Of a stretch of 64,000 nt of DNA, positions 8,336 to 51,339 are shown one piece after another. The DNA lies in assembly GCA_029100545.1 (NCBI GenBank), contig JAQXPH010000016.1, positions 10,008-74,007 of the forward strand, read 5' to 3'. How positions within the stretch are numbered: the stretch's first letter is position 1; each line of letters starts with the position of its first letter. The notes below the pieces were generated by a model. It ran no database searches, was not told the DNA's origin, and was given only the letters and a program-made list of their open reading frames with translations. The translations under genes and the position numbers were made by a program. Origin of the DNA: a bacterium. Its GTDB lineage: Bacteria; Bacillota_I; Bacilli_A; RF39; UBA660.

Positions 8336-8344
8336 TAATATACA

Positions 8345-24364: not shown

Positions 24365-24440
24365 GCCCAATTAGCTCAGTCGGTAGAGCGCACGGCTGTT
24401 AACCGTTAGGTCGTAGGTTCGAGTCCTACATTGGGCGCCA
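24365..24440 (+). tRNA. tRNA-Asn (anticodon GTT), CCA encoded
   Basis: Acceptor stem GCCCAAT/ATTGGGC; D-arm AGCTCAGTCGGTAGAGC; anticodon loop CTGTTAA; T-arm GGTTCGAGTCC; ends GCCA. Confidence 0.9.
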
Positions 24441-35586: not shown

Positions 35587-35730
35587 AATTATTTCCTCCT
35601 TATTATTTCTATGTATTATATTCTTTTTTTTAAGTTAAGTGATTTTTATTGCAAAATAATTAAAAGGTAGTTTACATATGTCCTTTTTTTGTGCTATAAT
35701 TTTTTATATGATAAAGGGTGTGAAAACAAA

Positions 35731-36951
35731 ATGAAAAATTTGAATTCTGAAATGAAGTTGCTTTTAGATAAACTATATAATCTTAGAGGTGAAGATAGTA
35801 TAGTACTTGTTTCAATAGAAGAAGAAAGACAAGAATCTATAAAGACTAAAGAAAGAACATTTAAACAAACTGCTGAACTTCAAGATAAATTATCAAAACT
35901 TGAAAGTGAAGGTCAAATACTTGCTAAAGAAGGTGAGAGTTTTAAAAATGCTCTACAAACTATTAGAAAAGATGAGTTTGTAAATGTATTAAAAGAATTA
36001 AATATTTCTTTTGATCCAAATAAAATTAAAGCAGAACTTGATGATAAATTGCCAAAAACATTAAATGAAATTGCAAGTGAAAAAACAAAGGCAGAAGAAG
36101 AACTTGTTAATGCTAAAGATGAAATGAATAAAGCTGCAACTAAAATTGAAGAATTAGGCATTAGAAAAGATGAGGCTATAAAAAATCAAGAAATGCTTAA
36201 TAGATATTTTTCTTTAGCATTAGAAGGAAATATTAGTATTACAAGAGATGAACTTACTTCACTACTTGCTAAGTTTAATTTTACAGAGGAAGAACAAAGA
36301 GAAGCAGCAAAACTTATAATGTTCCCAGAAGATGGATTATATGAGTATGAGGATGAATTAAAAAATAAACATAATGGAAAAAGTATAAGTGATGTATTTA
36401 AAGATGCAAGAGAAAATCTAGATTCAATTATTGTAGAAAACCCTGTTATAGAACCAGAAAAAACTGAAGATTTTCATTTTGATTTTATGAAGGATATAAC
36501 ACCTTTTGCACAAAAAAATGATGCACAAAAACTAGAAGTTAAAGTTGAAGATACAAAAGAAGAAAAAGTTGAATCAAAAAAAGAAGAAATTACTAAAGAT
36601 GAACTTATTAAAGTATTAAGTTCTTTAGGTTATGATTATTTAAATTTCACAAGTAATGATTTTGAGAAAATTTTAGAAAATTATGATGAAAAAACAATTA
36701 AAGATAATACTGAATTTATAAAATCTTTAAATATTTCTCTTGATTTTTTCTCTGATAATATAGAATTATTATATGATAAGGAAATGAAAGAAAAGATTGA
36801 AAAATTAACTAGTATTGGTAAGTTACCACAAGATATATATTTAAATCCAAATATTTTAATTAAATATGATTTGAATGGTTTAAATAGTGCAATTGAATTA
36901 CTTAGTCAAAGTGGTTTAGAACCTAAAAATGTACCATTAATAGCTTATTAG
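35731..36951 (+). CDS. Hypothetical coiled-coil / helical-repeat protein
   Basis: ATG at 35731 after an AGGGTG Shine-Dalgarno. Highly charged, helical; the C-terminal third carries LG-containing helical repeats. Confidence 0.45.
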   Translation: MKNLNSEMKLLLDKLYNLRGEDSIVLVSIEEERQESIKTKERTFKQTAELQDKLSKLESEGQILAKEGESFKNALQTIRKDEFVNVLKELNISFDPNKIKAELDDKLPKTLNEIASEKTKAEEELVNAKDEMNKAATKIEELGIRKDEAIKNQEMLNRYFSLALEGNISITRDELTSLLAKFNFTEEEQREAAKLIMFPEDGLYEYEDELKNKHNGKSISDVFKDARENLDSIIVENPVIEPEKTEDFHFDFMKDITPFAQKNDAQKLEVKVEDTKEEKVESKKEEITKDELIKVLSSLGYDYLNFTSNDFEKILENYDEKTIKDNTEFIKSLNISLDFFSDNIELLYDKEMKEKIEKLTSIGKLPQDIYLNPNILIKYDLNGLNSAIELLSQSGLEPKNVPLIAY

Positions 36952-36960
36952 GAGGTATCC

Positions 36961-37863
36961 ATGAATAATAATATTGCAGCTAAAATTAAGGCTTTATCAC
37001 TTAACGAAGATTCATATAAAACAGTTTGTAAGTTTTATGCTAGTCTTACTGATGATGTAATAACTTTAGAAGATTTTGTTGCTAAAGTAAATTATTTAAA
37101 TAGTAAAGGAATAAATATAACAAAATCCTCTCAAATTAAAGTATTAGCTAATTCATTAGATTTTATTAAAAATCAAGTTGAACAAATGGAAAAAATAGGT
37201 TTTTTAGATGCATTTGTTGAAAATCCCCTTAGAATTAATTCTAAAGAATGTATCAAAAGAATAGAGTATTTACTATCAATTAACAAAAGTATTAAGGATG
37301 AAAATGGAAAATATAACAAAATCATTTTTAATAAAAAAGAATTTGATCGTAAATATGGAGTTACATATTTAGAAAACAAATCTGATATTCAAAAACTAGA
37401 AGTAAAAACTGATAATATAATAGAAGCTAAAGAAGAAGTAAAACCAATTGAATCTGTAACTTCTCCAGAAGAAAATAAAATAGAAAAAAAAGAAAATGAA
37501 ATAATAAATGATGAACAAGTTATTGAAACTAATCCATATATACTTGCACTTTCAAAAGATCAAACAATACGTCTAACTGATGAAATGCTTGCTAAATATG
37601 AAGACATTAGTTTACATTTAAAACATGTATTAGAATCACTTAATTATGGAAGTGAAATTGATGGAACTAAATCTGATAATTTAATTAAACTTTTAACAAG
37701 TGGTATTACAGATGAAAGGGAAATAATATATTATTCGTTAACGTATAATAAAAAATTAACAGATGAAGAAAAAGTCAGAATATATAAAGCAATTGATAAT
37801 GAACTTCAATTAGTAAATGACGAAATTAATATAATAAATTTTAATTTAGGGAGTGTAAAATGA
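36961..37863 (+). CDS. Hypothetical helical-repeat protein
   Basis: GGAGG Shine-Dalgarno then ATG; shares the EKIGF-type repeat motif with its neighbours (MEKIGFLDAFVEN). Confidence 0.45.
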   Translation: MNNNIAAKIKALSLNEDSYKTVCKFYASLTDDVITLEDFVAKVNYLNSKGINITKSSQIKVLANSLDFIKNQVEQMEKIGFLDAFVENPLRINSKECIKRIEYLLSINKSIKDENGKYNKIIFNKKEFDRKYGVTYLENKSDIQKLEVKTDNIIEAKEEVKPIESVTSPEENKIEKKENEIINDEQVIETNPYILALSKDQTIRLTDEMLAKYEDISLHLKHVLESLNYGSEIDGTKSDNLIKLLTSGITDEREIIYYSLTYNKKLTDEEKVRIYKAIDNELQLVNDEINIINFNLGSVK

Positions 37864-38147
37864 AGTTTTTAGAAAAAATAGGATTTAGTAAAGATGATAT
37901 ATCTTTTTTAGAAGAAAATACTCCAGAAAAATTATTAGATTTAATTAAAGAACAAAAAAAATTAGTAACAGAAAATATTACTTATTTAAAAGATTTAGGT
38001 GTTACTAATTATCAAGATATATTTTTAAGATTTTATGATATGTTTTTAATGGATAATAGTAATTTTATAGCAATTTTCTCTAAATATGAAAAAGAAGATT
38101 TAATTGCTAAATTAAAGAAAAATATAAACATAGTAGAATATTTATAA
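37860..38147 (+). CDS. Small hypothetical helical-repeat protein (ATGA overlap with the upstream gene)
   Basis: MKFLEKIGFSKDDISFLEEN...LKDLGVTNYQDIFLRFYDMFLMD. Confidence 0.4.
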   Translation: MKFLEKIGFSKDDISFLEENTPEKLLDLIKEQKKLVTENITYLKDLGVTNYQDIFLRFYDMFLMDNSNFIAIFSKYEKEDLIAKLKKNINIVEYL

Positions 38148-38160
38148 ACTACTATGTTTT

Positions 38161-38949
38161 TTATTTACTTTTTAATCGATATAAATTAAAAGACGGTTTG
38201 TTTAAAAATCTTAAGTTAGTTTTTTCAGTACCTATTCCATAACTTACATACATTTGACTATTATTATCATTATAATAATTATCAATATAAATTTTTGCAC
38301 CATCTTTTTTTATTATAGCTCCCCAAAAAGGTATTCTAATTTGACCACCTAAAGAATGACCTGCAAAGATTACATCAATATTATAATTTTTTAATGTTTG
38401 AAAATCATCTGGTTTATGTAAAAGTCCAATTACAAAACTTGGATTAATATCTTCTTCATTTTCTAATAAAGAAGTATCAAAATTATTTGCATCTAGTATT
38501 TTAATTGGATCTATATCTTTGTTATATACATAAACGTAATTACCATTTAATACTGTAAAACCATTATTTAATAGAGTTTCTTTTATGTTTTCATTATCAT
38601 TGTCTCCTAAAATAGCATATTTATAATCTGCATTAATTTTATTAAAAAGTTCACCTAGTTTATTTAAATCATTATTATTTGCATTTTTAATAACATCTCC
38701 AGTAAAAACTACCATATTAACATTTTCATCATTTATTTTGTTTATAATATTTAAAGTATTTTCATAATCAAGTTCATTTTGATATAAAATATCAGAAAAA
38801 TGAGCTATTTTAAAACCATTAAAACCATTTGTAATTTTACTTGATTTAATTTCGTATTCATTAATTTTATAACCTTTAACATTAATATATTTTGCATATA
38901 AAAATATTAAAGTAAAAAACAAAATAATTATACATAAAAATTTTTTCAT
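38161..38949 (-). CDS. Calcineurin-like metallophosphoesterase (YkuE-like), with signal/anchor
   Basis: NMVVFTGDVI (motif), GHSLGGQIRIPFWG (GH and GxxR motifs). Confidence 0.7.
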   Translation of the reverse strand: MKKFLCIIILFFTLIFLYAKYINVKGYKINEYEIKSSKITNGFNGFKIAHFSDILYQNELDYENTLNIINKINDENVNMVVFTGDVIKNANNNDLNKLGELFNKINADYKYAILGDNDNENIKETLLNNGFTVLNGNYVYVYNKDIDPIKILDANNFDTSLLENEEDINPSFVIGLLHKPDDFQTLKNYNIDVIFAGHSLGGQIRIPFWGAIIKKDGAKIYIDNYYNDNNSQMYVSYGIGTEKTNLRFLNKPSFNLYRLKSK

Positions 38950-39626
38950 ATACTACCTGCCAACATAAGTAATAAAATACTTCCAAAATTATTAAAAAAA
39001 TGATATGTAATTGAAGTAAAAATATTATCAGTATCATAGAAAATATAACTTAAGGCAAATCCCATAATTGAGTAGGGAATAATATGTAATAGTTCAATTG
39101 AAGATTTAGCTACTAGTAAATGCATTGAACCAAAAAATAATCCTGTTATTATCGAAAAAATAATTTTGTTTTTAAATAAGTTTTTAAAATTTAATCTAAA
39201 TAAAATCTCTTCATAAAATGGAGCTAAAAAACACATTTCAATAACTGAATATAGTAATTTATATTTTACAAGTTCTCTATTTAATGATTCGTTTGTAGCA
39301 ATATCACCAGTAAATTGAGTTATAATTATATTAGATATATACATTAAAAATAAACAAATAATAAATATTTTAAAACTTTTAGAAATATATTTTTTATAAT
39401 TTTTTTTAAAGTCTTTTAAGTCATTTATTAAATTTTTTTTGTAAATTAAAAATAAGTATAGACACATTATTAAATAAATAATTATTGAAAATAAACTATT
39501 ATGTTTATTTAAATAGGATTTAAATAAAATAACTAAAATTTGCATAATTAAAAAAAATGATATAAATATTACTATATCTTTAATAATATTAAAAAAGATG
39601 TTTTTATTTTTTAATTTTATATTCAT
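38946..39626 (-). CDS. CPBP-family intramembrane metalloprotease (CAAX protease-like)
   Basis: Multiple TM segments; motifs EEILFR, FGSMHL, HFFNN in the canonical order. ATGA overlap with the downstream phosphoesterase gene. Confidence 0.7.
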   Translation of the reverse strand: MNIKLKNKNIFFNIIKDIVIFISFFLIMQILVILFKSYLNKHNSLFSIIIYLIMCLYLFLIYKKNLINDLKDFKKNYKKYISKSFKIFIICLFLMYISNIIITQFTGDIATNESLNRELVKYKLLYSVIEMCFLAPFYEEILFRLNFKNLFKNKIIFSIITGLFFGSMHLLVAKSSIELLHIIPYSIMGFALSYIFYDTDNIFTSITYHFFNNFGSILLLMLAGSI

Positions 39627-39718: not shown

Positions 39719-40444
39719 ATGAAAAAAAGTAAATATTGTTTATTTTTATTTATAATACTATTTATAGGTAAAAATGTTTTTGCTGAGTGTACATATGAAG
39801 AACAAGCAAAGCTTAATAGTGAAGCAGCAACTATTAAGGCAATTTATGAGGAACAAAAGGGTAATTTAGATTTATCAAATTATATATGTGCAGATGGTCA
39901 GGAAGATTGTAATACTGAGTATTCATATTTTAAAGTGGCTGTATTAAATTTAAGTGAAAACTTTTATGTAAAAATAAGTGAAGGTAAAAAAACTATAACA
40001 ACATTAACTTACAGTAATGTAGTAGATGGAATTGCAAGTTTTGATGTTGAAGATATAACTGAAACACACACATATAAATTTGATGTTTATACAAGTGATA
40101 AAACGAATTGCAAAAGTAAATTAAATCGTTCTTTTTATCTAACAACTCCAAGATTAAACGAGTATGCAAATTATTCAATTTGTGATGAACTTCCAGATTA
40201 TTATTTGTGCCAACAATATGTAACTTTTACTGACATGGGTTTTTCTGATTTTGTTGATAAAATTGAAAGTTATAAAAAAGAAGAGGAAGAAAAAGAAAAA
40301 GAGAGGAATAAATCTTTTTTTGAAAAAATAGGTGATTTTGTAAAAGAACATAAGACTATTTTTATTACAGGTGGGGTAGTAATTATAGTTGGTGTTGCTG
40401 GTGTGATTATAATAAAACAAAAAAGAAGAAAGGATATAATATAA
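39719..40444 (+). CDS. Secreted Cys-containing protein with a C-terminal TM anchor and KRRK tail
   Basis: AGGGATGG Shine-Dalgarno, MKKSKYCLFLFIILFIGKNVFA signal peptide; acidic EEEEKEKE linker; C-terminal IFITGGVVIIVGVAGVIIIKQKRRKD. Confidence 0.5.
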   Translation: MKKSKYCLFLFIILFIGKNVFAECTYEEQAKLNSEAATIKAIYEEQKGNLDLSNYICADGQEDCNTEYSYFKVAVLNLSENFYVKISEGKKTITTLTYSNVVDGIASFDVEDITETHTYKFDVYTSDKTNCKSKLNRSFYLTTPRLNEYANYSICDELPDYYLCQQYVTFTDMGFSDFVDKIESYKKEEEEKEKERNKSFFEKIGDFVKEHKTIFITGGVVIIVGVAGVIIIKQKRRKDII

Positions 40445-40445
40445 T

Positions 40446-43400
40446 ATGAAAAGAATATTTAAATATTTTATTGCATTTATTTTTATTATAATTCTAATAC
40501 CTAAAGCAAATGCATTTGAAGTTGGTGAAGAGTTTACGGTAATTAATAATGGTTCAGGTCAGTCATCTGGAGTTGGCTTTCCATATGGCTTTTCAACTTC
40601 AAGTGCAACTCAAGTATCTACTGGAAAAACATTTGAAGCATTTTGCCTTGAACGTAATAAAAGTGCTCCAACTTCTAGTACTACGTATTTAGTTGATAGA
40701 ACAATGCCATCCGAAACAAGTGAATCTGTTGCAAAATATGATTATGCTGCACTTTATATTATTAATAGTGAAGCAACATATGAAGAAAAACACCTTGCTA
40801 TAAGATTTCTTACTGATGTAATAGTAGGCTATAGTAATACTCAAACTGTAGCACCTGATTATTATTACCAAGAAGAAGCAGCTGTTAGTGAATTTATGAA
40901 AGATAGTTCGTTCTCAGCAGCTTATAATGATTTTACTACAAAAAGTTTTTCTTCATCACATACTTTTAATGGAAATATAAGCCAAATGTCAGGAGTAAAA
41001 AGTGTTTTACGTGATGGAATGATTTTTGCTAATGAAATGATGAAAGATAATCAAAATCAAACTAAAGTTGAAAAAGGTGAATCTGGAGAAATTAGCAAAG
41101 AATCAAGTGGTGGAATGGTTACATATAAAAAAATTGTTTCAATAAAACTTGATATATATAATATATTAAACGATAGTGATGATGAATATTTCAAAATAAT
41201 AAGTGAACCAGAAGTTGAGGCTTATAGTGACCAAGTTGAAGTTAAAATGCTTGGCGTATCTGAAACATTTATTGATAGTGAAAATGGTTGGAATTCTATA
41301 AGTGTTGGTGAAGATATATCAAAGAAACTTGATGATAGAAAAGGAACATTATATTTGGGATTTTTAGTTACTTTAACAACAGAAGAACAAAGTGAAAGTG
41401 CTGAAGAAGAGGAAGAAGAAGATTGCACTGTTAAAATAACGATAAATTATGAATATACTAGTCCTTATTCTGGAGCTGTTTTAAAACATTCAAATGCAAG
41501 TTATAGGCAAAGTGCTCAAAAATTTATAGTTGCTTCAACTGATCCAATAAAAGGTAAGTTTACATTAGAAACTAATTTATGTAGTGAAGCAACATGTGAT
41601 CCTACGATTTCCGTTCCAACATTATGTGAACCTGGTGAAGATGAGAAAGTTAATGAAGATGGATTAATAGAGTATGAATTTAGAGAAGCATATAATCCAG
41701 ATACAGGAAAGTATAATATTAAGAAATGTTTATTAAAGAAAAATAGCAATGATATAGCGGAAAATTCTTATAAATATGTAGATTCTGAAAATGCTCAAAT
41801 GGTAGTTGATAATCCATATTGTGAAGTTAAATGTAAAGAAGATTATAAATTTGGAGTGCCATATAAGAAAACAACTGAAGCAGGAAGGTATTTCCAAATT
41901 AGTACATCTATTAAAGGAGAACAAGATTGTTATACTACTAAACTTGATTACAATAAGTACACAGAAGATGTAGTAAAAAAACAAGCAGAAATTATAGATA
42001 CATATAATGAATGGCTATTAAATTATGAAAATCATATGAAAACACCAGAACAAGGTTTACCAGCAGAGTGTAAAAAATGTGGTACAAACGAAGATGGAGG
42101 TTGTGATGAAAATCTTGAAACAATAGACTATTATGATAAAATTGAACATAGTAATAACTTCATATACAAGACAATAATATCATCAGAAGATGGACCATGG
42201 AGTATTGAAGCAGGGGTTGGAGATAGTAGAGGCCCTGAAAAATATGGTAAATGGGATGGCGATGGAAAGACTTGCTCAAGTAATGGTAGTACATGTACTT
42301 CAAGTGGAACATGCGATTGGGAAATAACTCCAGAAGACGACTATGAAGAAAAAGATAAAGAATATAAACAAAAAATACAATCTACAAAACAAAAATTAAA
42401 ACAATTGCTTGAAGATCTTCGTATGATAGTTGATGAATATAACTCTTGTGTTGCTGATCATGATTATGCTTCAAAACAAAAAGATAAATCAAAAACTTAT
42501 GGAGATTCAGCATTTTGGGATATGGTATATATTTATGACCCAGAAGTTTATTATAGTTATGATGAACCAGAACCTAATAATACAAGTATAAGTAAGTGGA
42601 TAGAAGAAGTAAAAAGTATTAGTTCATGTGATAATGGAACTTGTGATATTATGATTAGTCCTGATGAATTAATAAAAGCTGAAAAATGTTCTGATAAATG
42701 TTCCGTTGATTGTGATGAACTTGGCCATAGTGGAAATGTTGAGGATATAGATGAAAATATGCATCCAGTAACTTGGTATTGTGATGGCGAAGTTGATAAT
42801 GAATATAAGGAATGTAAAGGAAATGAAATAAATAACATTTTAAGTGTTGGTGATTATAATGAAGAATATCACTGGATGGTTCTTGATGAAGATTTAGATA
42901 CTGGTATTGAAGCAGAAGTTCATATTGGAAATAATTTAAAAAATTCAAAACATTTGATAACAAAAATGGATTATTTACATAAGATTGCACAGTCTGAAGG
43001 TAATTATACTACAGCAAGGGTTTATTTTTCAGGACACGATAATGGAGATATAAAAATTGAAAATACTGATAAAATAGAAAACTATGATGTAGTAGATGGG
43101 TTACCAGTAAGTATTAATACACCACAAGGAGTATATAATTATACATTAACTTTGAAAAATATGGGTACATATTATTCTACAACACCTAATTTAGGAAGAA
43201 TATTTGATGATGAAGGAAATACAATGGCTAATTTATATATTGAAAAAGGAATTAGACCTTCAGCAACAAAAGAAAATGGTGAAGAAATAAAAGGAAATGA
43301 ATATGTATGTACATATGAAGTTTCAGCCAATGAATGTACTGATAGTTCTGGAACAAAACATTATAAAACAGAATGTAATTTAGAAAATGAAACTTGGGAT

Positions 43401-44291
43401 CAATGTAAAGAAAGATTATGTCCAAATTCTGCAGGACCATATTGTGTACATGATTCTAATGGTTACTATGTATGTGATAATAATTATTATAACGAAAGTT
43501 GTCAAAAACAAGGATCTAGGGAAGAAGCACTAGCAGCAGTAGGATGTACACTAGGTGAACCTTGTGAAAAAAATTATAATTGCTGTCCAGATTGTACAGT
43601 AGAATGTATTGGTGAATGTGTAGTTAAATCCGAATGTACTTCAACTGGTTGTACAGGAAATCCAAATTCAAAACCTCAGTACAATTTTAAACCAATAAGT
43701 CCAGGTAATATGTTTCCAACAGATCGTGAAATAGGTTTTAACTGGGATATAAGTGGCAAATATAAAAATTCATTAGTTGCTAGAAAAGCAAAAGATACTA
43801 GAGAAGAAATAACAGCAAGAGCAAATGATGTAACATCAGAAAGTGGAAGTAGTGGTATACCAAAAGTTGAAGACTATTCACTTAAAGTTACAATGGACAC
43901 TAATATGATTAATAAAATTAGGGAATATAATCAAGAACAAGGAACTTATAATAATGATACGATGTCATGTTATGATTACAAGTTAGATTATGATGAAGAT
44001 CATTGTAAGAAAAATGGTTATGCATATGTTAACAATGAGTGTATTATGTCAAATATATTTTGCTATAGTGAATTTGTTGATGACCTTCTTGATGGCAATT
44101 TTGGTGGAGAAGTTGATATGACAAATAAAGAAGGAAGAACGAAAACAAAAGAAGCATTTAATAAACAATATACTGGTATAACTGGAACACTTGATAATGT
44201 GGTAACTAATGATTATTGGACAATATATAGTTTTACGTCACTAGATACAAATGGTGATAGTATACCAGATATTGGACCATCTTGGAAATAA
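40446..44291 (+). CDS. Giant (1281 aa) secreted Cys-rich protein of unknown function
   Basis: Signal peptide MKRIFKYFIAFIFIIILIPKANA. Many Cys, densest near the C-terminus (e.g. CPNSAGPYCVHDSNGYYVCDNNYY...CCPDCTVECIGECVVKSECTSTGC). Acidic tract EEQSESAEEEEEED. No LPXTG and no repeats. Confidence 0.6.
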   Translation: MKRIFKYFIAFIFIIILIPKANAFEVGEEFTVINNGSGQSSGVGFPYGFSTSSATQVSTGKTFEAFCLERNKSAPTSSTTYLVDRTMPSETSESVAKYDYAALYIINSEATYEEKHLAIRFLTDVIVGYSNTQTVAPDYYYQEEAAVSEFMKDSSFSAAYNDFTTKSFSSSHTFNGNISQMSGVKSVLRDGMIFANEMMKDNQNQTKVEKGESGEISKESSGGMVTYKKIVSIKLDIYNILNDSDDEYFKIISEPEVEAYSDQVEVKMLGVSETFIDSENGWNSISVGEDISKKLDDRKGTLYLGFLVTLTTEEQSESAEEEEEEDCTVKITINYEYTSPYSGAVLKHSNASYRQSAQKFIVASTDPIKGKFTLETNLCSEATCDPTISVPTLCEPGEDEKVNEDGLIEYEFREAYNPDTGKYNIKKCLLKKNSNDIAENSYKYVDSENAQMVVDNPYCEVKCKEDYKFGVPYKKTTEAGRYFQISTSIKGEQDCYTTKLDYNKYTEDVVKKQAEIIDTYNEWLLNYENHMKTPEQGLPAECKKCGTNEDGGCDENLETIDYYDKIEHSNNFIYKTIISSEDGPWSIEAGVGDSRGPEKYGKWDGDGKTCSSNGSTCTSSGTCDWEITPEDDYEEKDKEYKQKIQSTKQKLKQLLEDLRMIVDEYNSCVADHDYASKQKDKSKTYGDSAFWDMVYIYDPEVYYSYDEPEPNNTSISKWIEEVKSISSCDNGTCDIMISPDELIKAEKCSDKCSVDCDELGHSGNVEDIDENMHPVTWYCDGEVDNEYKECKGNEINNILSVGDYNEEYHWMVLDEDLDTGIEAEVHIGNNLKNSKHLITKMDYLHKIAQSEGNYTTARVYFSGHDNGDIKIENTDKIENYDVVDGLPVSINTPQGVYNYTLTLKNMGTYYSTTPNLGRIFDDEGNTMANLYIEKGIRPSATKENGEEIKGNEYVCTYEVSANECTDSSGTKHYKTECNLENETWDQCKERLCPNSAGPYCVHDSNGYYVCDNNYYNESCQKQGSREEALAAVGCTLGEPCEKNYNCCPDCTVECIGECVVKSECTSTGCTGNPNSKPQYNFKPISPGNMFPTDREIGFNWDISGKYKNSLVARKAKDTREEITARANDVTSESGSSGIPKVEDYSLKVTMDTNMINKIREYNQEQGTYNNDTMSCYDYKLDYDEDHCKKNGYAYVNNECIMSNIFCYSEFVDDLLDGNFGGEVDMTNKEGRTKTKEAFNKQYTGITGTLDNVVTNDYWTIYSFTSLDTNGDSIPDIGPSWK

Positions 44292-44305: not shown

Positions 44306-45439
44306 ATGAAAGAATCCTATTGGGGTTATTGGCTAATGGTTTTAGGAGTATTCATTATTGTAGTACTCCTTCTCATCCAAAGCTTTACTTCAACCAATAC
44401 TCAAGACTATTATTTAATTAAAGAAATTACTGAGTCATCATTGGTAGATGCAATAGATTATGGTTATTATCGTGAGTATGGTGAACTTAAAATTAATAAA
44501 GAAAAATTTTATGAAGTATTTTTAAGAAGATTTGCTGAGGAAGCGTCACTTACAACTACTTATACAATAGAATTTACTGAAATATATGAAGCACCACCTA
44601 AAGTTGGTGTTAAAGTATCAAGTAAATCATCAACTTTTACAGTTGGAGGAGATACAACAACATTTGATATAGTAAATAAACTTGATGCAATTCTTGAGTC
44701 AAAAAATAGTGCAAATATTGGCGAAGGTGAAGGATCAATCGTAGATGATTTTACAGGTGATGATGAAATTATAAATCCATCAACTGGTGAAGAAGAAACT
44801 CCTGAAGGAAGATTTGATGTGCTGATTGGTAATCCAGCAAGTATTGTACAACAATCAGAGTATGTTACTGTAAATGGCGTTAGTGTTAATATGTTTTGTG
44901 CCTGTGGTCCAATTGCGATTACTGAAGCGGCAATTATATTAGGAAAGACAAATACTTTAAAATCGGGTGTAAATTATAGTGGAAGTAATAATAAAGAACT
45001 TGCTGCAGCAACATACATTAAAATGCATGATTATGGTTTAAATGGTGATCCAACAACTAGCAATTATGATTCAAGTAGTCCATCATTTTGTGGAAGAACA
45101 GGTAATTATTCCTCAGGAAATGGATTTTATAGTACTATTGGTATAAGTGTAGCAGGAAGTGGTGGAAGTTTTGGTAGTAAATCTGGTGGATATGCAGATG
45201 AAATATTTAAACAATTAGCAAGTGGAAATGTTGTTATTGCCTCATTACCTCCGAACACATCAAATGTACCATCAGATTCAGGTTTAAAAAATACAAATAG
45301 TGGACATTATTATACAATTTATGGTTATGATGCTAATAATGGTTGCTTTAAGGTATATAATCCTATGGCTGGTAATTCATGTGTATCGGATGCAAATGTA
45401 GATAAATATTTTACTGAATACATTTCATATTCAGGCTAA
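44306..45439 (+). CDS. Membrane-anchored Peptidase_C39_2-like (YvpB-like) cysteine peptidase domain protein
   Basis: N-terminal TM (WLMVLGVFIIVVLLLI); C-terminal MFCACGPIAITEAAIIL (catalytic Cys context) and GHYYTIYGYDANNGCFKVYNPM (His/Asp region), matching the C39_2 family pattern. Confidence 0.5.
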   Translation: MKESYWGYWLMVLGVFIIVVLLLIQSFTSTNTQDYYLIKEITESSLVDAIDYGYYREYGELKINKEKFYEVFLRRFAEEASLTTTYTIEFTEIYEAPPKVGVKVSSKSSTFTVGGDTTTFDIVNKLDAILESKNSANIGEGEGSIVDDFTGDDEIINPSTGEEETPEGRFDVLIGNPASIVQQSEYVTVNGVSVNMFCACGPIAITEAAIILGKTNTLKSGVNYSGSNNKELAAATYIKMHDYGLNGDPTTSNYDSSSPSFCGRTGNYSSGNGFYSTIGISVAGSGGSFGSKSGGYADEIFKQLASGNVVIASLPPNTSNVPSDSGLKNTNSGHYYTIYGYDANNGCFKVYNPMAGNSCVSDANVDKYFTEYISYSG

Positions 45440-45551
45440 AAAGAACGTAAAAAAAATTATGTTCTTTTTTTTAATAGATAATCTTGAAATTGTTAATAAA
45501 AGTTGCTATAATTTTAATTGATAATAAAAGATTAACATATGGAGGATAAAA

Positions 45552-46322
45552 ATGGGAAATATTATTAATTTTTTTAAAAAAACAATTGCTAACAAAAATA
45601 CTGTTACAATACTTTTAGTTTTAGCAGGTATTGTTGTATTATGGGTATTTTACTCAATGAGAGTAAAAGAGGCTACTTCTCCAATAAAAGTGCCTTATGC
45701 AAAGGAAGAAATTCAGGCAACTGAAGAAATAACTGAAGATAAAATAGGCTATGTCGAAGTTAATAGTAAACTTTTAAAAACAGTGGATATTATTCAAAGT
45801 CAAAGTGCACTTATTGGTTATTATGTAACGACTGGTACATCTATTCCTAAAGGTGGATTATTTTATAAATCTCAGATAGTTACTAAAGCAGAATTACCAA
45901 ATTCAGTTTTTGATAATATTCCAGATAAACACACAATTTATAGTATGTCTGTTAATAATCATACTACTTTTGGAAATTCAATTTATCCTGGGGATAAAAT
46001 AGACCTTTATTTAAAAGCTACTGATGATAGTGGTAAAATAATGTTTGGAAAATTTATTGAAAGTATTACAGTTTTAGGAGTACGTGATTCAAGTGGTAAA
46101 GATGTTTTTGGAACTACTACTACTAGAACTCCTGCAGAACTTTTATTTGCTGTACCAAATGATATGTACGAATTATTAATGAAAGCAGGTTATATTTCTG
46201 GCATTACACTAGTTCCTGTACCACGTAACAAAGCATATACTGAACTTAATGCAGATACTGTTACTATAGAATATTTGAAAAACTTTATATTAGCAAAAAC
46301 TGCAACATTACCAACAGAATAA
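45552..46322 (+). CDS. Flp pilus assembly protein CpaB/RcpC-like
   Basis: N-terminal TM, a SAF-like beta-rich segment, and a C-terminal TPAELLFAVPNDMYELLMKAGYISGITLVPVPRN resembling the CpaB C-terminal module. Confidence 0.5.
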   Translation: MGNIINFFKKTIANKNTVTILLVLAGIVVLWVFYSMRVKEATSPIKVPYAKEEIQATEEITEDKIGYVEVNSKLLKTVDIIQSQSALIGYYVTTGTSIPKGGLFYKSQIVTKAELPNSVFDNIPDKHTIYSMSVNNHTTFGNSIYPGDKIDLYLKATDDSGKIMFGKFIESITVLGVRDSSGKDVFGTTTTRTPAELLFAVPNDMYELLMKAGYISGITLVPVPRNKAYTELNADTVTIEYLKNFILAKTATLPTE

Positions 46323-46345
46323 AAGAATAAAGGGAGTGATTATTT

Positions 46346-47485
46346 GTGAAAGAATCTATATTTTCACAATTAGATTTTGGACCTATAACTGAGTTTTTAA
46401 ATGATGATAATATTACCGATATTTCATATTCAAATGGTGGTAATGTATGGCTTAAAACTTTAGATAAAGGTATTTATATGGTCAATAGACCTGAAATAAA
46501 CAATGCATTAATGGAAAAATTAGCATTTCAATGTTCAAATGTTATGGGTACAACTTTTAATATGGCTCATCCTTTTCTAGATGCTGAAAGTACTGAACTT
46601 CGTCTTAACTTTGTTCATGAATCAATAGCCACAAATGGAATTGCCTGTGTTATAAGAAAAACACCTGCTAAGATTAGGTTAAATAAAGAAAAATTATTAA
46701 ATGAAAAATATGTTACTGAAAATATTCATAGTTTTTTAATATCATGTGTTAAGGCACATTGTAATATATTAATTTCTGGTGAAACTGGTTCAGGTAAAAC
46801 AGAACTTGCTAAATATTTAGCCTCTAATACTGAAGAAAATGAAAAAATTATTACGATTGAGGATACATTGGAACTTCATTTAGATAGAATTTTTCCACAT
46901 CGAGATATAGTTGCTATGAAAACAAATAATATTGCTTCGTATTCTGATGTTCTAGTAACATGTATGAGACAAAATCCTAAATGGATTTTACTTTCCGAAG
47001 TTCGTTCAGCAGAAGCAGTTACTGCTGTTAGAAACTCAATTTCGTCAGGTCATAATATTATTTCTACTATCCATTCAGATAGTGCTAGTAATATACCAAT
47101 GCGTATGTATTCTTTGCTTGAAAGTAATCAAGATATTGAGCAATTTTTAAAATCTATTCATAGATATGTTCAAATTGGAATACACGTAAAAGGATATATG
47201 AGTGCTGAACTTCAAAGATTTCAACGTGAAATTGTCGAAGTTGTAGAATTTTATGTAGATGATAATAATGAATCAAAAACAAATACAATATTTTATAAAA
47301 GTTTAGATGGTACTATTGCTTATAATAAACCAACAAAATATTTAGAAAATTATTTTGGTGCTCAAGGAAAAGTCCTTGATTATAGTTTATTTGATGAACA
47401 AAATAATTCAGATATAATTGAAAAAAAAGAAAATAGTAATGGACAAATTGAATTACCTATTATAGGAGCAATTGATTCATTATAG
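46346..47485 (+). CDS. TadA/CpaF/VirB11-family secretion ATPase
   Basis: Walker A ILISGETGSGKTE; TIEDTLEL (Asp box); WILLSEVRSAEA (Walker B region); GHNIISTIHSDSA (His box). Confidence 0.8.
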   Translation: MKESIFSQLDFGPITEFLNDDNITDISYSNGGNVWLKTLDKGIYMVNRPEINNALMEKLAFQCSNVMGTTFNMAHPFLDAESTELRLNFVHESIATNGIACVIRKTPAKIRLNKEKLLNEKYVTENIHSFLISCVKAHCNILISGETGSGKTELAKYLASNTEENEKIITIEDTLELHLDRIFPHRDIVAMKTNNIASYSDVLVTCMRQNPKWILLSEVRSAEAVTAVRNSISSGHNIISTIHSDSASNIPMRMYSLLESNQDIEQFLKSIHRYVQIGIHVKGYMSAELQRFQREIVEVVEFYVDDNNESKTNTIFYKSLDGTIAYNKPTKYLENYFGAQGKVLDYSLFDEQNNSDIIEKKENSNGQIELPIIGAIDSL

Positions 47486-47497
47486 AAAGGAATAAAT

Positions 47498-48394
47498 ATG
47501 GTAGAACTTATAATATTATTGATTTTAGGTATAATAATAATTTTATATCGAAGAAATCCAGGCGAAAATGTATATAAGTTTTTTGTAACTACAGTATCCG
47601 ATGCATATGATAAATATGCTCCTTATTCATTTAAAACAGTTAGAGCAAAAGCAAAAGAACTTGGTCAAGAATATTCTACTAGGCAATATATTTCTCAAAT
47701 TGTTTTATTTGCCGGTTTTGCTGGCGTTGTAGCATATTTATATTTTTATAATATCTTGATTTCTGTTTTATATGCTGTTGTTGCTATTTCATTTATTCCT
47801 TATCTTGCATATTTAAGATGTCAAAGAATTTATTCAGAATTTATTTTTGAACAAATTGAAACATATACAACAAATGTTATAATGGAATTTAATACAACCC
47901 AAAGTTTTGTTAAATCTCTCGAAGGTGTTAGAGATTCTGGAATTATTGAAGAACCTGTATTAGGTGATTTAAAAAAAATGATTGATATGTCATATCAAAA
48001 TGGTACAATAGATGAATCAATTGATTATTTTAACAAAAAGTATCCATTTTATATGGTTAAAAACATGCATCAATTGTTTTTCCAAATTACTAAAGAAGGT
48101 GCTCGTGATGCAGGACAATCTCTTGAGAATATGGCGCTTGATATAGATGCACTAGTTGAGGGTGTTTATCGAGATCAAATGGATCGTAAACAATTTCATG
48201 GTAAATTTATAAAATTTGGTCTAGCATTATTTTTTCTTATTTTAGCAGTCCAATATATGTATGGAACTGAAAGATATATTGAACTTTTAGATATATGGTA
48301 CGTACGAATTATACTTCATGCAATAATTATAATAAATGCGTTATTCCTTTTAAAGGGTGAAAAATATTATAACGAAGATGTGGGGGTAGAGTAA
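47498..48394 (+). CDS. TadB-like (T2SS-F domain) inner membrane protein
   Basis: N-terminal TM, a central cytoplasmic roughly 110-aa domain, C-terminal TM pair. Position right after the ATPase. Confidence 0.5.
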   Translation: MVELIILLILGIIIILYRRNPGENVYKFFVTTVSDAYDKYAPYSFKTVRAKAKELGQEYSTRQYISQIVLFAGFAGVVAYLYFYNILISVLYAVVAISFIPYLAYLRCQRIYSEFIFEQIETYTTNVIMEFNTTQSFVKSLEGVRDSGIIEEPVLGDLKKMIDMSYQNGTIDESIDYFNKKYPFYMVKNMHQLFFQITKEGARDAGQSLENMALDIDALVEGVYRDQMDRKQFHGKFIKFGLALFFLILAVQYMYGTERYIELLDIWYVRIILHAIIIINALFLLKGEKYYNEDVGVE

Positions 48395-48395
48395 T

Positions 48396-49187
48396 ATGTA
48401 TTATGAAATATTTATACTTGGTGTTATTATTTTTGGAATAATGTTTGCTACTGGTCAGATAAGCTTTAGTAAATTAATTAGTGATAATGAAGTATTATTT
48501 AGAAAACTTAAAGAAAGTGATTGGGACTTTTATGTAAAAGCCAAATATGGTAATGCTGTAAATCCAGATATTTTATTTAATAAAAGAATAAGAAATGGTT
48601 TAATTGCAATGCTAGTTGCATTTTTCTGGGGACTTACGAGTGGACTTTCAGCAATAAAAATTGTTATTGTTGTGGCAGCGGGATATTTTACTTTTAAAAT
48701 TACATATAGTGATTTAAAAAATTATTATAAAAAACATATTTTTGAAATAGATCAATTATTGCCACATTATTTAAAAAGTATTGAAATATTAATTCAACAC
48801 TATACAGTTCCTGTTGCAATAGGTAAATCAATAAATGATGCTCCAGAAATATTTAAACCTGGTCTTGAAGATTTAATAAATGCTATTAATTCTGGTGATG
48901 ATACAATAAATCCATATATGGAATTTGCTAAAACGTATCCTGTACGTGATAGTATGAGAATGATGAGACTATTATTTCGTTTAAGTTTAGGACGACAAGA
49001 AAGAAAACAAGAACAGTTATTAACATTTTCAAAATCAATTTCATCATTGCAACAAAAAGCAAGAGAAACTCGTTATAAAAATCGTTTAGATAAAATGGAA
49101 AGTATGACAATGAAAATGCTTATTACAACTGGTGTTGGTGTAATGATTATTTTAATTCTTGCAGTTTTACAAATGATAAATTTATAA
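48396..49187 (+). CDS. TadC-like (T2SS-F domain) inner membrane protein
   Basis: LPHYLKSIEILIQHYTVPVAIGKSINDAPEIF...MRMMRLLFRL resembles the T2SSF consensus (LP..L..l...aG.sl..Al). TM helices at both ends. Confidence 0.55.
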   Translation: MYYEIFILGVIIFGIMFATGQISFSKLISDNEVLFRKLKESDWDFYVKAKYGNAVNPDILFNKRIRNGLIAMLVAFFWGLTSGLSAIKIVIVVAAGYFTFKITYSDLKNYYKKHIFEIDQLLPHYLKSIEILIQHYTVPVAIGKSINDAPEIFKPGLEDLINAINSGDDTINPYMEFAKTYPVRDSMRMMRLLFRLSLGRQERKQEQLLTFSKSISSLQQKARETRYKNRLDKMESMTMKMLITTGVGVMIILILAVLQMINL

Positions 49188-49261
49188 AAATGTCAAATAT
49201 ATTGATAAAAAATAAAAATATTGTTATAATAAAAATATAAGATAAAGGAGGAGTAAATTAT

Positions 49262-49507
49262 ATGAAGGAAGCTACAGGTGAATTAAGTAACACTGTTATA
49301 ACTGTTGTTGCAATAGCTGCAATATTATCATTATTTACAGTATTCTTATATCCATCATTAAAAGCAGCTATTAGAGCTAGAACTTATTGTCAATCATCAG
49401 TACAGTGTGGTGACTGTGATGGTAATAAAATGGAATGCCATTATTATAATGATGATATGTCTGTAAGTGAAGATACAATTATGTGTGATTGTGAAACAAA
49501 TGAATAA
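49262..49507 (+). CDS. Pilin-like small protein with a Cys-rich C-terminal domain (non-canonical Flp/TadE-like N-terminus)
   Basis: MKEATG/ELSNTVITVVAIAAILSLF (short charged leader ending in Gly, then a hydrophobic helix), followed by a 45-aa Cys-rich tail (7 Cys). AGGAGG Shine-Dalgarno. Confidence 0.45.
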   Translation: MKEATGELSNTVITVVAIAAILSLFTVFLYPSLKAAIRARTYCQSSVQCGDCDGNKMECHYYNDDMSVSEDTIMCDCETNE

Positions 49508-49528
49508 AGTTAATTAAAAGGAGTAGAA

Positions 49529-49750
49529 ATGAAAAATGCTACGGGAAATCTAGCAAATTTAGTTGTTGTATGTGTTTGTGTGGCTATTCTCGTAGCTTTT
49601 TTTTACTTTACATTATGGCCAATGATTAAAAATAATTATATTTCGCAAACAAGTTGTGAAAAAGCTAAATGCCTTCCAAAACCTGATCAAAATGGTATGG
49701 TAACATGTTATTTGGATGGGCAAGAGTTTTTATGTAAGTTTAAGGGGTAA
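49529..49750 (+). CDS. Pilin-like small protein paralog with a Cys-rich C-terminus
   Basis: MKNATG/NLANLVVVCVCVAILVAFFYF then a Cys-containing tail. The N-terminus is paralogous to the upstream gene (MK-ATG-L-N-V). Confidence 0.45.
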   Translation: MKNATGNLANLVVVCVCVAILVAFFYFTLWPMIKNNYISQTSCEKAKCLPKPDQNGMVTCYLDGQEFLCKFKG

Positions 49751-49753
49751 TTT

Positions 49754-50260
49754 ATGAGAGAAGGAATAGGCGGAATACAATTATTTTTAATTGTTGTAAT
49801 ATTAGTATTAATTTTTGCGGGTATTATGTCACTTACAATTAATCATTCAAATGCTTTTGCAATAAAAGATCAACTTGTCTCAATAATTGAGGATGCTGGT
49901 GGTCTAGATATTACAGCTGAATGTAGATTAGGTGATTGTAATGATGATATAAAAGATCAACAAACACTTCAAAATATTGTTGATGCTCTTGATAGTTATT
50001 CTTACCGTCAAACTGGTAATTGTGATTCAATAACTGTAAGTGATACTGCAACAATGGTTGGATATCAAAGAACTGGAGAAATTACAATGACGGGGAAAAA
50101 AAGTTCTTTTTGTATTGCAAAAATTGATGCTAATAAAGATGATGGAACATTAAGAGGGTATTACTATAAAGTTTATGTTTTTTATCAACTAGATATACCT
50201 GTATTACATTCAATTTTTAATTTTCGTTCCATTGGAGAAACAAAACTATTATATAGATAA
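49754..50260 (+). CDS. TadE-like pseudopilin candidate
   Basis: MREGIGGIQLFLIVVILVLIFAGI N-terminal helix, then a roughly 140-aa globular domain with Cys residues. Confidence 0.35.
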   Translation: MREGIGGIQLFLIVVILVLIFAGIMSLTINHSNAFAIKDQLVSIIEDAGGLDITAECRLGDCNDDIKDQQTLQNIVDALDSYSYRQTGNCDSITVSDTATMVGYQRTGEITMTGKKSSFCIAKIDANKDDGTLRGYYYKVYVFYQLDIPVLHSIFNFRSIGETKLLYR

Positions 50261-50269
50261 GGAGTGTTT

Positions 50270-51268
50270 ATGAACGTAATTATTTCAAATAAAAATCAAG
50301 CATTACTTGCAAATTTAACTATTGATGTTATTAAAACATTAAATGGTGTTTTTACTGTAGATGATTTAGCATCACAATTTAAAAATTTTTATTTTAATAA
50401 AATGATTATTGATATAACAGCACTTGATAATTATGAAGATATTAATACAATTCAAAACTTGTCAGTAGCTTTAGATATGAGCAAAGTAATTTTACTTTTA
50501 GATGATTCACCTAGAGTTAATTCACCGGTGTATTTATCTAGTTTGGTATCAATGGGCATATATAATTTTACCAAAAATGTTGATGCAATTTTATTTTTAA
50601 TAGAAAATCCTAATACATATAAAGATGTTGCAAGTTATCAAAATTTAAATTTATCAGCTGATGATATGAAATTAAATGATAATAGTGTTGATAATACAGT
50701 TGGATATATTGGTCAAAGAATAATTGGAATTAAAAATGTTACTGACCATGCTGGAGCAACAACACTTACTTATTTATTAAAAAAACATTTAGAAAAGCAA
50801 TATAAAGTAAAGGCTGTAGAGATTGATAATAGTGATATGGTTTATTTTAATGATAATAATATTGATACTAATGTTAATAGTTTTGAAGTTAGTAAATATT
50901 TAAATAATTTAAATAACAATGAAACTGAGGTTATTTTAATTGATATGAATAAAGCTGATATTGAAAAATATTGTACAGATGTTTTATATTTAATTGAACC
51001 TGGTTTAATACAACTAAATAAACTGATTAAAACTGATAAACAAATATTTAATAAATTAAAAGGTAAAAAAATTATTTTAAATCGAAGTGTATTAAATGAT
51101 ACGGATGTTAGTGATTTTGAAAAAGAGTCTGGTAGTAAAGTCTTTTATAATATGCCAAATATTGATGATAAATTAAATGATAATAAATATATAATTAAAT
51201 TATTAAAAGATTTGGGATTTACTAGAATAAATGAAAAAGAATCATTTGGATTTAGTATTTTTAGGTAA
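50270..51268 (+). CDS. TadZ/CpaE-like protein: receiver-like N-domain plus MinD/ParA-like domain with a degenerate Walker A
   Basis: AAGGAG then ATG at 50270. N-terminal roughly 120 aa with receiver-like beta-alpha pattern (VIISN...IIDITALD...VILLLDD). Then IIGIKNVTDHAGATTLTYLLKKHL in the place of KGGVGKTT, and VILIDMNKAD in the Walker-B-like position. Confidence 0.45.
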   Translation: MNVIISNKNQALLANLTIDVIKTLNGVFTVDDLASQFKNFYFNKMIIDITALDNYEDINTIQNLSVALDMSKVILLLDDSPRVNSPVYLSSLVSMGIYNFTKNVDAILFLIENPNTYKDVASYQNLNLSADDMKLNDNSVDNTVGYIGQRIIGIKNVTDHAGATTLTYLLKKHLEKQYKVKAVEIDNSDMVYFNDNNIDTNVNSFEVSKYLNNLNNNETEVILIDMNKADIEKYCTDVLYLIEPGLIQLNKLIKTDKQIFNKLKGKKIILNRSVLNDTDVSDFEKESGSKVFYNMPNIDDKLNDNKYIIKLLKDLGFTRINEKESFGFSIFR

Positions 51269-51339
51269 AATAGATGTTTAATATATTGACAGTTTTTAAA
51301 TAAAAAGGTAAAATATAAATATGTGAAGGAGTGTTATAT

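Follow-up and report, generated by a model that had tools for sequence, protein, structure and literature searches.

The N-terminal third of a large secreted protein from an uncultured gut bacterium is very likely a diverged class II thioester domain (TED). The protein has 1281 residues, is exported by the Sec pathway and is encoded by an open reading frame (ORF) at 40446..44291 (+), with an ATG start and the stop codon included, in a stretch of 64,000 nucleotides from the RF39 lineage UBA660 (assembly GCA_029100545.1, contig JAQXPH010000016.1, positions 10,008 to 74,007), which is referred to here as the window. Covalent bonding to a target through a thioester has been shown for SfbI and other TED adhesins. 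The explanation towards which the evidence leans is that the protein is a covalently binding adhesin that is retained at the cell by the products of its neighbouring genes, possibly at the tip of a pilus.

An earlier note on the same DNA had described a signal peptide followed by about 1250 residues without a recognisable domain, and had directed attention to a Cys-dense stretch near the C-terminus. The signal peptide, as read from the sequence, comprises residues 1-23 of the 1281 (40446..40514 (+); MKRIFKYFIAFIFIIILIPKANA|FEV, with the cleavage site ANA|FEV), and a hydrophobic N-terminus is found in every full-length homologue. The reported absence of internal repeats and of LPXTG is borne out by a self-BLAST, in which the protein gave the identity match alone, and by a scan of its sequence, in which neither LPXTG nor a C-terminal transmembrane (TM) or other hydrophobic segment was found. 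Choline-binding and SLH repeats had also been reported as lacking, and no matches or motifs of either kind were detected; a wall anchor of the WxL, GW, SLH or choline-binding type was dropped on the same grounds. The acidic run that had been placed near residue 300 is present, but its position was approximate: EEQSESAEEEEEED occupies residues 313-326. Scans of the whole protein against Pfam and NCBIfam gave no match, and a search of PDB sequences with a profile of close homologues found nothing. The statement that there is no recognisable domain is nevertheless not upheld, since remote homology identifies the N-terminal third as a TED, and it is here, instead of in the C-terminal Cys stretch, that the clue to function lies.

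The N-terminal thioester domain

Which features identify a TED? Only the Cys and the Gln that form the bond, in their motifs, are universal (PMC6194298); the Cys motif, [YFL]-C-hydrophobic-hydrophilic, has also been given in a second report (PMC8092201). In class II TEDs, an inserted beta-sandwich supplies the Gln by way of a hairpin (PMC6194298). The domain of the window protein extends over residues 24-376 (40515..41573 (+)), an assignment based on Pfam matches of homologues, Foldseek, hhalign and the sandwich in a model of the protein itself. It is composed of a head with a beta lobe and a helical lobe (residues 24-199) and an inserted beta-sandwich (residues ~207-350), which holds the acidic loop at 313-326 and is followed by the Gln-bearing hairpin.

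The predicted thioester Cys is Cys67 (codon 40644..40646 (+)), which lies in F-C-L-E and fits the Cys motif. Its predicted partner is Gln358 (codon 41517..41519 (+)), in A-Q-K-F-I, which fits hydrophobic-Q-hydrophilic-hydrophobic-hydrophobic. Cys67 is invariant in every family alignment and is the sole Cys in residues 24-326, while Gln358 is invariant in two of the alignments (A1 and A13) and conserved at 90% or above in four others (A3, A5, A6 and A7). Across the family, the invariant Cys occurs in [YF]-C-[LIVR]-[DEN], an invariant Arg in T-x-x-A-[IL]-R, and a near-invariant Gln in Q-[RKN]-F-[YIV], some 200-290 residues past the Cys. The distance from Cys67 to Gln358, with the sandwich between the two, is comparable to that in class II TEDs, where the pairs are C71/Q266 in BaTIE and C88/Q292 in EfmTIE86 (PMC6194298) and C68/Q256 in TIEpLS20 (PMC8092201).

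Profile searches of homologues point to the same domain. The TED profiles that were considered are Pfam PF08341 and PF20610 and TIGR03934. Two homologues exceed the PF08341 cut-off of 22 bits (L052 with 22.8 bits and L062 with 22.2 bits), and the homologue P0401 carries a precomputed match to this family. PF08341 is the sole Pfam family that recurs among 45 members, six of which match it at E values up to 0.05 (best 1.1e-5). One family member has a weak match to TED_2.

The structural evidence comes from the homologue P0286 (1093 residues), which is 99% identical to the ORF of L052 and ~24% identical to the window protein. Its full-length AlphaFold2 (AF2) model, made with a diverse alignment of 70 sequences, has a mean predicted local distance difference test (pLDDT) score of 83.3 and a predicted template modelling (pTM) score of 0.60. 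When this model was compared with the PDB by Foldseek, the only significant match was 6fwy, the class II TED of Enterococcus faecium TIE86 (E 5.6e-6, probability 1.0, 378 columns). The N-domains of the window clade and of the P0286/L052 clade were aligned by hhalign with a probability of 99.0 (E 2e-18, 318 columns). Gln358 maps to Q363 of P0286, which is found past the sandwich in the loop between strands E349-356 and E365-370. AlphaFold modelling of residues 186-1281 of the window protein, for which a shallow alignment of 34 sequences was used, reached a mean pLDDT of 54; a beta-sandwich at residues ~205-315 and a long helical hairpin are confident in this model. Foldseek searches with it returned only beta-sandwich noise (E 0.014 or worse), and PDB sequence searches with N-domain profiles (A4 and A8) and with one homologue fragment did not reach TED structures.

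A thioester between Cys67 and Gln358, and with it a function in adhesion, is probable on this evidence, although less secure than the homology of the domain. The bond would form autocatalytically and would react with an amine of the target, usually that of a Lys side chain, so that an isopeptide bond links the two covalently. The TED would be the distal, binding part of the exported protein.

Homologues of 1400-1650 residues (P0007-P0120) carry a Cys-rich, low-complexity insertion of ~300 residues within the TED. The insertion point corresponds to a position after residue ~185 of the window protein (nucleotide ~41000), between the helical lobe and the sandwich.

A large family in small-genome gut Bacilli

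How widespread is this protein? A word-indexed search returned 240 relatives, the best 120 of which span 90% to 50% identity; these 120 are all without a Pfam domain, and one of them bears the name 'unknown [Mycoplasma sp. CAG:472]'. An exhaustive search with residues 82-1281 extended the family to at least 299 clusters at 50% identity, with proteins that are typically 950-1900 residues long. The most distant relatives match three stretches of the window protein, at residues ~380-530, 830-1010 and 1040-1281. Full-length members have a signal peptide at the start and 2-5% Cys. The earlier note had proposed a comparison of presence and absence across related genomes, and such a comparison reveals a large family with largely conserved synteny among the 91 loci surveyed.

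Human, pig and other gut metagenomes are the main sources of the family loci, and the named records are metagenome-assembled genomes labelled 'Mollicutes bacterium', 'Bacilli bacterium' or 'uncultured Mycoplasma sp.'. Contigs of 1.1-1.3 Mb are found among the relatives. Members are present in CAG:472-like gut Bacilli, whose genomes we take to belong to the GTDB order RF39. The hosts are small-genome uncultured Bacilli (PMC7301438), and a comparative-genomics paper on RF39 and RFN20 makes no mention of pili or adhesins (PMC7301438).

Variable cassettes in a conserved protein

Alleles of the gene were compared with the help of two contigs of the same species, L092 and L095, which share 97-98% nucleotide identity with the window over tens of kb. 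Three hypervariable segments stand out from a nucleotide background of 97-100% around them. Cassette 1a (40494..41120 (+), residues ~17-225) covers the TED head and has 51-73% nucleotide identity to L092. Cassette 1b (41394..41573 (+), residues ~317-376) covers the Gln-bearing hairpin, with 70-72% nucleotide identity. Cassette 2 (42036..42353 (+), residues 531-636) is the insert at the tip of the helical hairpin that is described below, and appears as a blastn gap with the exact limits 42037-42353 in L092 and in L095 alike. At the protein level, the cassettes are 25-58% identical between strains that are otherwise 97-100% identical.

The alleles are mosaics. Compared with the window protein, P0001 is 98% identical in the head, 98% in the Gln hairpin and 29% at the tip; P0002 has 41%, 55% and 92% identity in the same three parts, and P0003 has 41%, 58% and 29%. 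Protein identity to P0002 and P0003 is 41% over the head, against 93-100% elsewhere in the protein. Cassette 2 assorts independently of cassette 1 in these three alleles. The head and the Gln hairpin vary together, while the sandwich between them stays at 86-90% identity. Co-variation of this kind would be predicted from the class II topology, in which the hairpin is inserted into the head.

A similar gradient is seen at greater distances. Between species, the large protein is 47-53% identical while the proteins of the neighbouring machinery are 80-93% identical, and across the family the N-terminus is variable and the C-terminus conserved. Exposed surfaces that bind or are antigenic would be expected to vary in this way. 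Exchange of the head together with the Gln hairpin, and of the hairpin tip, could change specificity, antigenicity or both.

The stalk and the C-terminal end

The remaining ~900 residues would form a stalk. Its module borders were obtained by mapping the P0286 model onto the window protein, and the result is a set of new modules. Cys module 1 (41574..41939 (+), residues 377-498; YCEVKCKEDY...GRYFQI...DCYTTK) has seven near-invariant Cys, is the most conserved part of the protein and corresponds to one of the three regions to which the most distant homologues align. It is followed by a long antiparallel helical hairpin (41940..42455 (+), residues ~502-531 and ~634-670), which is confident in both AF2 models, with a beta-rich insert at its tip (residues 541-629). 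A beta-rich region comes next (42456..43301 (+), residues 671-952), with a clade-specific Cys-bearing insertion at residues 728-756. The Cys-dense module (43302..43652 (+), residues 953-1069) contains 17 Cys, and the protein ends in a conserved alpha/beta domain (43653..44288 (+), residues 1070-1281) with invariant aromatic residues (NW, Y, Y, W).

The protein contains 44 Cys (3.4%), compared with 1.3% across the long ORFs of the window (24.4% GC). Apart from Cys67, all lie from residue 327 on. Residues 955-1069 contain 17 of them, and the last 351 residues contain 21; the C-terminal region is thus as Cys-dense as the earlier note had claimed, and both of the strings quoted there are present, at residues 992 and 1046. 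The pattern reflects more than chance, because nearly all of the Cys are conserved across homologues. Twenty-three (22 and Cys67) are conserved in at least 79% of the family, an odd count that fits 11 pairs and an unpaired Cys67. The stalk is probably stabilised by up to 11 conserved Cys pairs, which may stand in for the isopeptide and ester cross-links of classical TIE proteins.

In the Cys-dense module, the family shares a core of ~45 residues (Y.C.Y.V.CP.C...C.G..C....C....C...C..CI), which is enlarged in the window clade by two Cys-bearing insertions. The equivalent in P0286 (~residues 874-940) is modelled mostly with a pLDDT below 50 (883-891 and 914-940), despite the deep alignment. The model is compatible with disulfides and also with metal sites, and with a knotted fold or another. 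A remote-homology search of the C-terminal region, as had been proposed for it, was made with a 330-residue profile (A11) and found no relative among PDB sequences or in Pfam.

How is the protein held at the surface? It was said to have no anchoring motif, and this is true of the known motifs; the family nevertheless shares an invariant C-terminal pentapeptide, G-P-S-W-K-COOH (44274..44288 (+)). GPSWK stands at the very end of all 120 close homologues, and the more general ending GP[SA][WY][KR] is found in nearly all of ~150 distant representatives. In 1.52 Mb of locus sequence, the ending is specific to this family (92 of 92 members, and no other protein). A role as a genome-wide sorting signal was dropped, since within these 1.52 Mb of loci, as distinct from whole genomes, the motif is carried by this family alone. 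A literature search gave no relevant mention of a GPSWK motif. In the absence of a sortase signal, the C-terminal domain and GPSWK could hold the protein non-covalently to the products of one or both flanking genes, which are described in the next section.

Directly before GPSWK, a D-T-N-G-D-S-I-P-D loop (residues 1267-1275, 44244-44270) resembles the calcium-binding motif DxNxDxxxD. The D-x-N-x-D-x-x-x-D loop is confined to window-type clades. A weak FG-GAP match was seen in two other members of these clades, not in the window protein, and is attributed to this loop.

Operon partners

Gene order was surveyed at 91 loci, which represent at least 34 distinct sequences. The gene directly upstream (39719..40444 (+)) encodes a tail-anchored protein of 241 residues, with a signal peptide, an ectodomain with seven Cys, an acidic/basic linker, a TM segment at residues 211-229 and a KQKRRKDII tail. 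Judged by its sequence, it probably starts at the ATG at 39719 and not at the TTG at 39653 (263 residues) of the mechanically called ORF. This anchor gene is directly 5' of the large gene in 68 of the 69 loci that could be evaluated, and its architecture is kept throughout alignment A12. A profile made from this alignment found no relative in Pfam or the PDB. In one locus (L049, 7132-16100) the pair is duplicated in tandem, in the order anchor-adhesin-anchor-adhesin-DUF5411, and the two adhesin copies, of 1244 and 1085 residues, are divergent.

The large gene had been described as starting 2 nt after the stop codon of an anchored protein. The anchoring and the close spacing are confirmed, but the spacer is 1 nt: the TAA of the anchor gene ends at 40444 and the ATG of the large gene is at 40446. 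An AAGGA lies 11 nt 5' of this ATG, and translational coupling of the two genes is plausible from their arrangement.

The Tad genes had been said to follow. Tad-like genes do lie downstream, but another gene comes between, at 44306..45439 (+), which encodes a DUF5411 domain (Pfam, 1.3e-54) and a C39-like cysteine peptidase domain (Peptidase_C39_2, 2.4e-7). A DUF5411 gene is directly 3' of the large gene in all 82 of 82 loci, and the anchor gene, the large gene and the DUF5411 gene are referred to here as the trio. In most loci the DUF5411 protein has ~136-150 residues and lacks the peptidase domain. The C39-like domain, with its conserved CACGP...GHYYT...YNP, has been added in the window and CAG:472 clades and gives the protein the look of a modular minor pilin. 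The leader of the DUF5411 protein, MKESYWG|YWLMVLG, resembles the MKEATG|EL of the pilins of the locus and the pseudopilin-like leader, and because of this pilin-like leader and its size the protein is read as a minor pilin. DUF5411 has one earlier report, as a component of uncharacterised Tad-like operons in gut Clostridia (PMC9523054). An obligatory role of the C39-like peptidase in processing the adhesin was considered and dropped, as the domain is absent from most loci.

Could the protein instead be released? In this alternative, it would be a substrate or effector that the Tad-like machine, acting as a piston in the manner of type II secretion, pushes into the medium. The protein has a Sec signal, no known anchor and a gene in a type IV filament locus, and there is a precedent for pilus-dependent export of non-pilin proteins in TcpF and the TCP pilus (PMC12075869). 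Its constant pairing and co-duplication with a membrane-anchored partner argue for retention, however, and the trio persists where Tad genes are not adjacent. An N-terminal TED on a long conserved body is the architecture of a surface adhesin, and the variability is found at the N-terminus and at an internal tip, not in a C-terminal toxin-like module. Release is therefore improbable. The two candidate roles of the earlier note, an adhesin at a pilus tip and a secreted effector, are thus separated: the adhesin is the best reading and the effector the weaker one, while a place at the pilus tip is plausible, with the qualification that the trio also persists where the adjacent Tad genes have been replaced.

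The Tad-like locus

The machinery genes occupy 45552..51268 (+) and encode a CpaB/RcpC-like protein, an ATPase of the T2SSE family, two polytopic membrane proteins in the positions of TadB and TadC, Cys-rich prepilin-like proteins (81 and 73 residues), a pseudopilin-like protein of 168 residues and a protein of 334 residues. The order across loci is anchor gene, large gene, DUF5411 gene, one or two CpaB-like genes, ATPase gene, two polytopic genes and prepilin-like genes, followed by one or two pseudopilin-like genes, the 334-residue gene and genes for small proteins with three TM segments. This order, together with that of the upstream genes, is kept even where the large proteins are only 23-33% identical. 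The 81-residue prepilin-like gene (49262-49507) is missing from the same-species contig L095, where the flanks have 97-98% identity, so that strains differ in the pilin genes they contain.

The label 'Tad' is only partly supported. The ATPase matches T2SSE at 5.9e-29, but its subfamily is ambiguous, with the VirB11/TrbB models (best) and the TadA models all below cut-off, and the CpaB/RcpC matches are also below cut-off. The two polytopic proteins match neither T2SSF nor any other family. The prepilin-like proteins lack the Flp motif G|xxxxEY, and no prepilin peptidase motif was found in the window. The large protein itself has an ordinary Sec signal ending in A-N-A and no prepilin leader, while the pilins, the 168-residue protein and the DUF5411 protein of the locus share MKE..G leaders.

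All of the extracellular products of the locus are Cys-rich. The Cys richness that had been called unusual is real in the numbers given above, but it is common to these products, and is a property of the whole system and not of this protein alone. The broader description of an extracellular, Cys-rich protein encoded with a Tad-like pilus locus is supported.

Two small paralogues at the end of the locus (51331-51666 and 51770-52144) have three hydrophobic segments and four Cys each, and their position is conserved across the family. Both match T4SS_pilin (PF18895) below cut-off (E 0.02 and 6e-4). Promoter-like sites with 11 of 12 matches are found at 45484-45512, 49202-49230 and 51286-51314, the first two with an extended -10 element; they lie in the gaps ahead of the CpaB-like gene, of the first gene for a pilin and of the first gene for a small 3-TM protein, respectively. 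The trio and the machinery may be separate transcription units. Promoter and terminator scans of the AT-rich window gave results that were not above shuffled controls, and Rfam identified no regulatory RNA near the locus.

Upstream of the trio, the window holds three genes without a family match (420, 300 and 95 residues; helical and repeat-like) at 35689-39626, together with a divergently transcribed metallophosphoesterase gene and one for an Rce1-like (CPBP) intramembrane protease; the synteny of this region is kept across distant species. The Rce1-like protease was considered as a processor of the C-terminus and dropped, as it was not detected in many loci.

In the CAG:472-like clade (L001 16071-19409, and L008, L014 and others) the Tad genes are replaced by genes for a small sortase, a VWA protein and an ABC/FtsX transporter. 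The VWA protein of the L001 clade has 824 residues, repeats, a C-terminal hydrophobic segment and a KKREN tail.

Does the trio act with the pilus at all? It may be a pilus-independent surface complex, or the C-terminal domain may be a new module for non-covalent wall binding, with the Tad pilus merely adjacent. The CAG:472-like clade keeps the trio and its upstream genes, with other genes in place of the Tad genes; a strong promoter-like site, at 45484-45512, divides the trio from the CpaB-like gene; and the invariant aromatics of the C-terminal domain (NW, Y, Y, W) are of a kind seen in many wall-binding modules. By contrast, DUF5411 is otherwise known only from Tad-like operons and has a pilin-like leader, the gene order with the Tad genes is kept even at 23-33% identity, the protein matches no known wall-binding family, and the promoter scan as a whole was not above shuffled controls. 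On balance, independence from the pilus is rather unlikely.

In the preferred explanation, a covalently binding adhesin retained by its operon partners, the C-terminal domain and GPSWK would dock on the anchor protein, the DUF5411 protein or both, and the DUF5411 protein could seat the adhesin on the Tad-like pilus where the machinery is present. Display on the pilus is itself a tentative part of this explanation, and somewhat doubtful. In its most specific form, the proposal is that this is the first covalently binding thioester adhesin on a type IV (Tad-like) filament, that GPSWK docks on a DUF5411 minor pilin or is passed to it from the tail-anchored partner, that display is independent of sortase, and that strain-specific cassettes direct it to host or partner cells. 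Taken whole, this version is speculative and unlikely to hold in every part.

What might the target be? The same mechanism could act on another bacterium, in aggregation, mating or episymbiosis. TIEpLS20, which promotes mating-pair formation, is a class II TED adhesin encoded in an operon for DNA transfer and, according to the discussion in its report, lacks an obvious wall anchor (PMC8092201), and in uncultured hosts with small genomes a dependence on partner cells is conceivable (PMC7301438). VirB11 and TrbB models give the locus ATPase its best scores and the two 3-TM proteins match T4SS_pilin weakly, but all of these matches are far below the family cut-offs. The locus also lacks a relaxase, a coupling protein and VirB4, and sits in a conserved chromosomal core between housekeeping genes. 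A bacterial partner is thus a fairly unlikely target. A conjugative or type IV secretion element as such was dropped, as the locus lies in the chromosomal core and has no relaxase, VirB4 or VirD4.

Points against the proposal

Several observations weigh against a thioester adhesin displayed with a pilus. The window protein itself has no Pfam or NCBIfam match to a TED, so that the assignment rests on homologues of ~24% identity and on motif conservation. In the hhalign comparison it was Q355, and not Q358, that was set opposite Q363 of P0286, at the edge of the local alignment; Q355 is the less likely candidate for the thioester Gln. The third TED motif, TQxx-hydrophobic-W, is degenerate: the window protein has K-H-L-A-I-R120, and the family version, T-x-x-A-[IL]-R, has an invariant Arg in place of the Trp and no Gln. 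The TQxx-hydrophobic-W motif is not essential for formation of the thioester bond (PMC6194298). In the stalk, no fold match was obtained from the PDB or BFVD that would confirm its role, and disulfides are an assumption in an anaerobic host with no thiol oxidoreductase motif in the window. Finally, the Tad ATPase is 3' of the trio in 38 of the 63 loci with enough downstream sequence and not adjacent in the other 25; a role with the pilus could therefore be general only if those 25 genomes carry the genes in another place.

The degenerate third motif also bears on a different function for the N-terminal domain. The protein might be a surface enzyme, a protease, transglutaminase or amidase with Cys67 as its catalytic nucleophile, and an invariant Cys after an aromatic residue together with the invariant Arg120 would be in keeping with this. 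However, the TED is the sole match in sequence and in structure, with no peptidase or transglutaminase family or fold among the matches; the invariant N-domain columns revealed no conserved His; and an invariant Gln occupies the class II TED position. A catalytic role for Cys67 is accordingly very improbable.

Relation to known adhesins and pili

To our knowledge, bacteria have no device other than the thioester domain for attaching covalently to a target, and the examples that we know of come from TIE proteins anchored by sortase, from sortase pili and from a single conjugation operon. A literature search turned up no work in which thioester domains were connected with type IV or Tad pili. 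What is new about the window protein is its body, its C-terminal signature, its partners and its genomic setting; its warhead is known.

The closest counterparts are the class II TIE adhesins BaTIE of Bacillus anthracis (6FWV), EfmTIE86 (6FWY), SaTIE and TIEpLS20 of plasmid pLS20, in which a signal peptide is likewise followed by the TED. They share with the window protein a Gln donated by the sandwich, ~200-290 residues after the motif Cys, and a TED that is distal on a long multi-domain body. In other respects they differ. The stalk consists of new Cys-rich modules and a helical hairpin, with no Pfam match to Cna or ester domains in the window protein or in 45 homologues. The protein ends in GPSWK (...DIGPSWK), whereas the TIE proteins have LPXTG, a TM segment and a basic tail; where the latter have TQxxW, it has T/K-x-x-A-[IL]-R. 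An acidic loop is present in the sandwich, and the long homologues have in addition their Cys-rich insertion of ~300 residues. The genomic neighbourhood is a Tad-like locus, while that of the TIE proteins includes a sortase.

Cpa/Spy0125, the tip protein of the sortase pilus of Streptococcus pyogenes, is also a TED adhesin that is displayed on a pilus and encoded with it, by a gene that varies strongly from strain to strain. Its TEDs are of class I and its pilus is polymerised covalently by sortase, in contrast to the type IV (Tad-like) genes and the presumed non-covalent attachment in the window.

An analogy can also be drawn with PilY1/PilC of type IVa pili, large Sec-exported adhesins that lack a pilin N-terminus and have their genes among those for the pilus and its minor pilins. 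Their N-terminal part is variable and serves in binding, and their conserved C-terminal part docks on the minor pilins. It is an analogy only: there is no similarity in sequence or fold, no beta-propeller was found (by Pfam, and with the C-terminal domain modelled as a small alpha/beta domain), and the setting here is Tad-like and monoderm.

Finally, the DUF5411 'secretion-related' operon of Roseburia, Ruminococcus and Eubacterium has a CpaF-type ATPase, a PilC/GspF-type protein, DUF5411 and a large adhesin-like protein in common with the window locus (PMC9523054). In these Clostridia the large protein is described as internalin-like and not as a TED protein. The membrane proteins encoded in the window have no T2SSF match.

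The host lineage is a very prevalent, uncultured gut lineage with small genomes. If the proposal is correct, it would provide a concrete handle on how such small-genome uncultured gut Bacilli attach, suggest that strains differ through two swappable cassettes, and describe a mechanism of display that needs neither sortase nor a known wall-binding module. It would also give a first putative role to the DUF5411 protein and to the anchor protein of 241 residues.

Other features of the window

A region of the window at ~31355-31845 is internally repetitive, giving many offset blastn matches to L095, and overlaps ORFs on both strands. A SAM riboswitch (66 bits) is found at 8344-8427 (+), 5' of the ORF that begins at 8529, and a tRNA-Asn gene is located at 24365-24440 (+).

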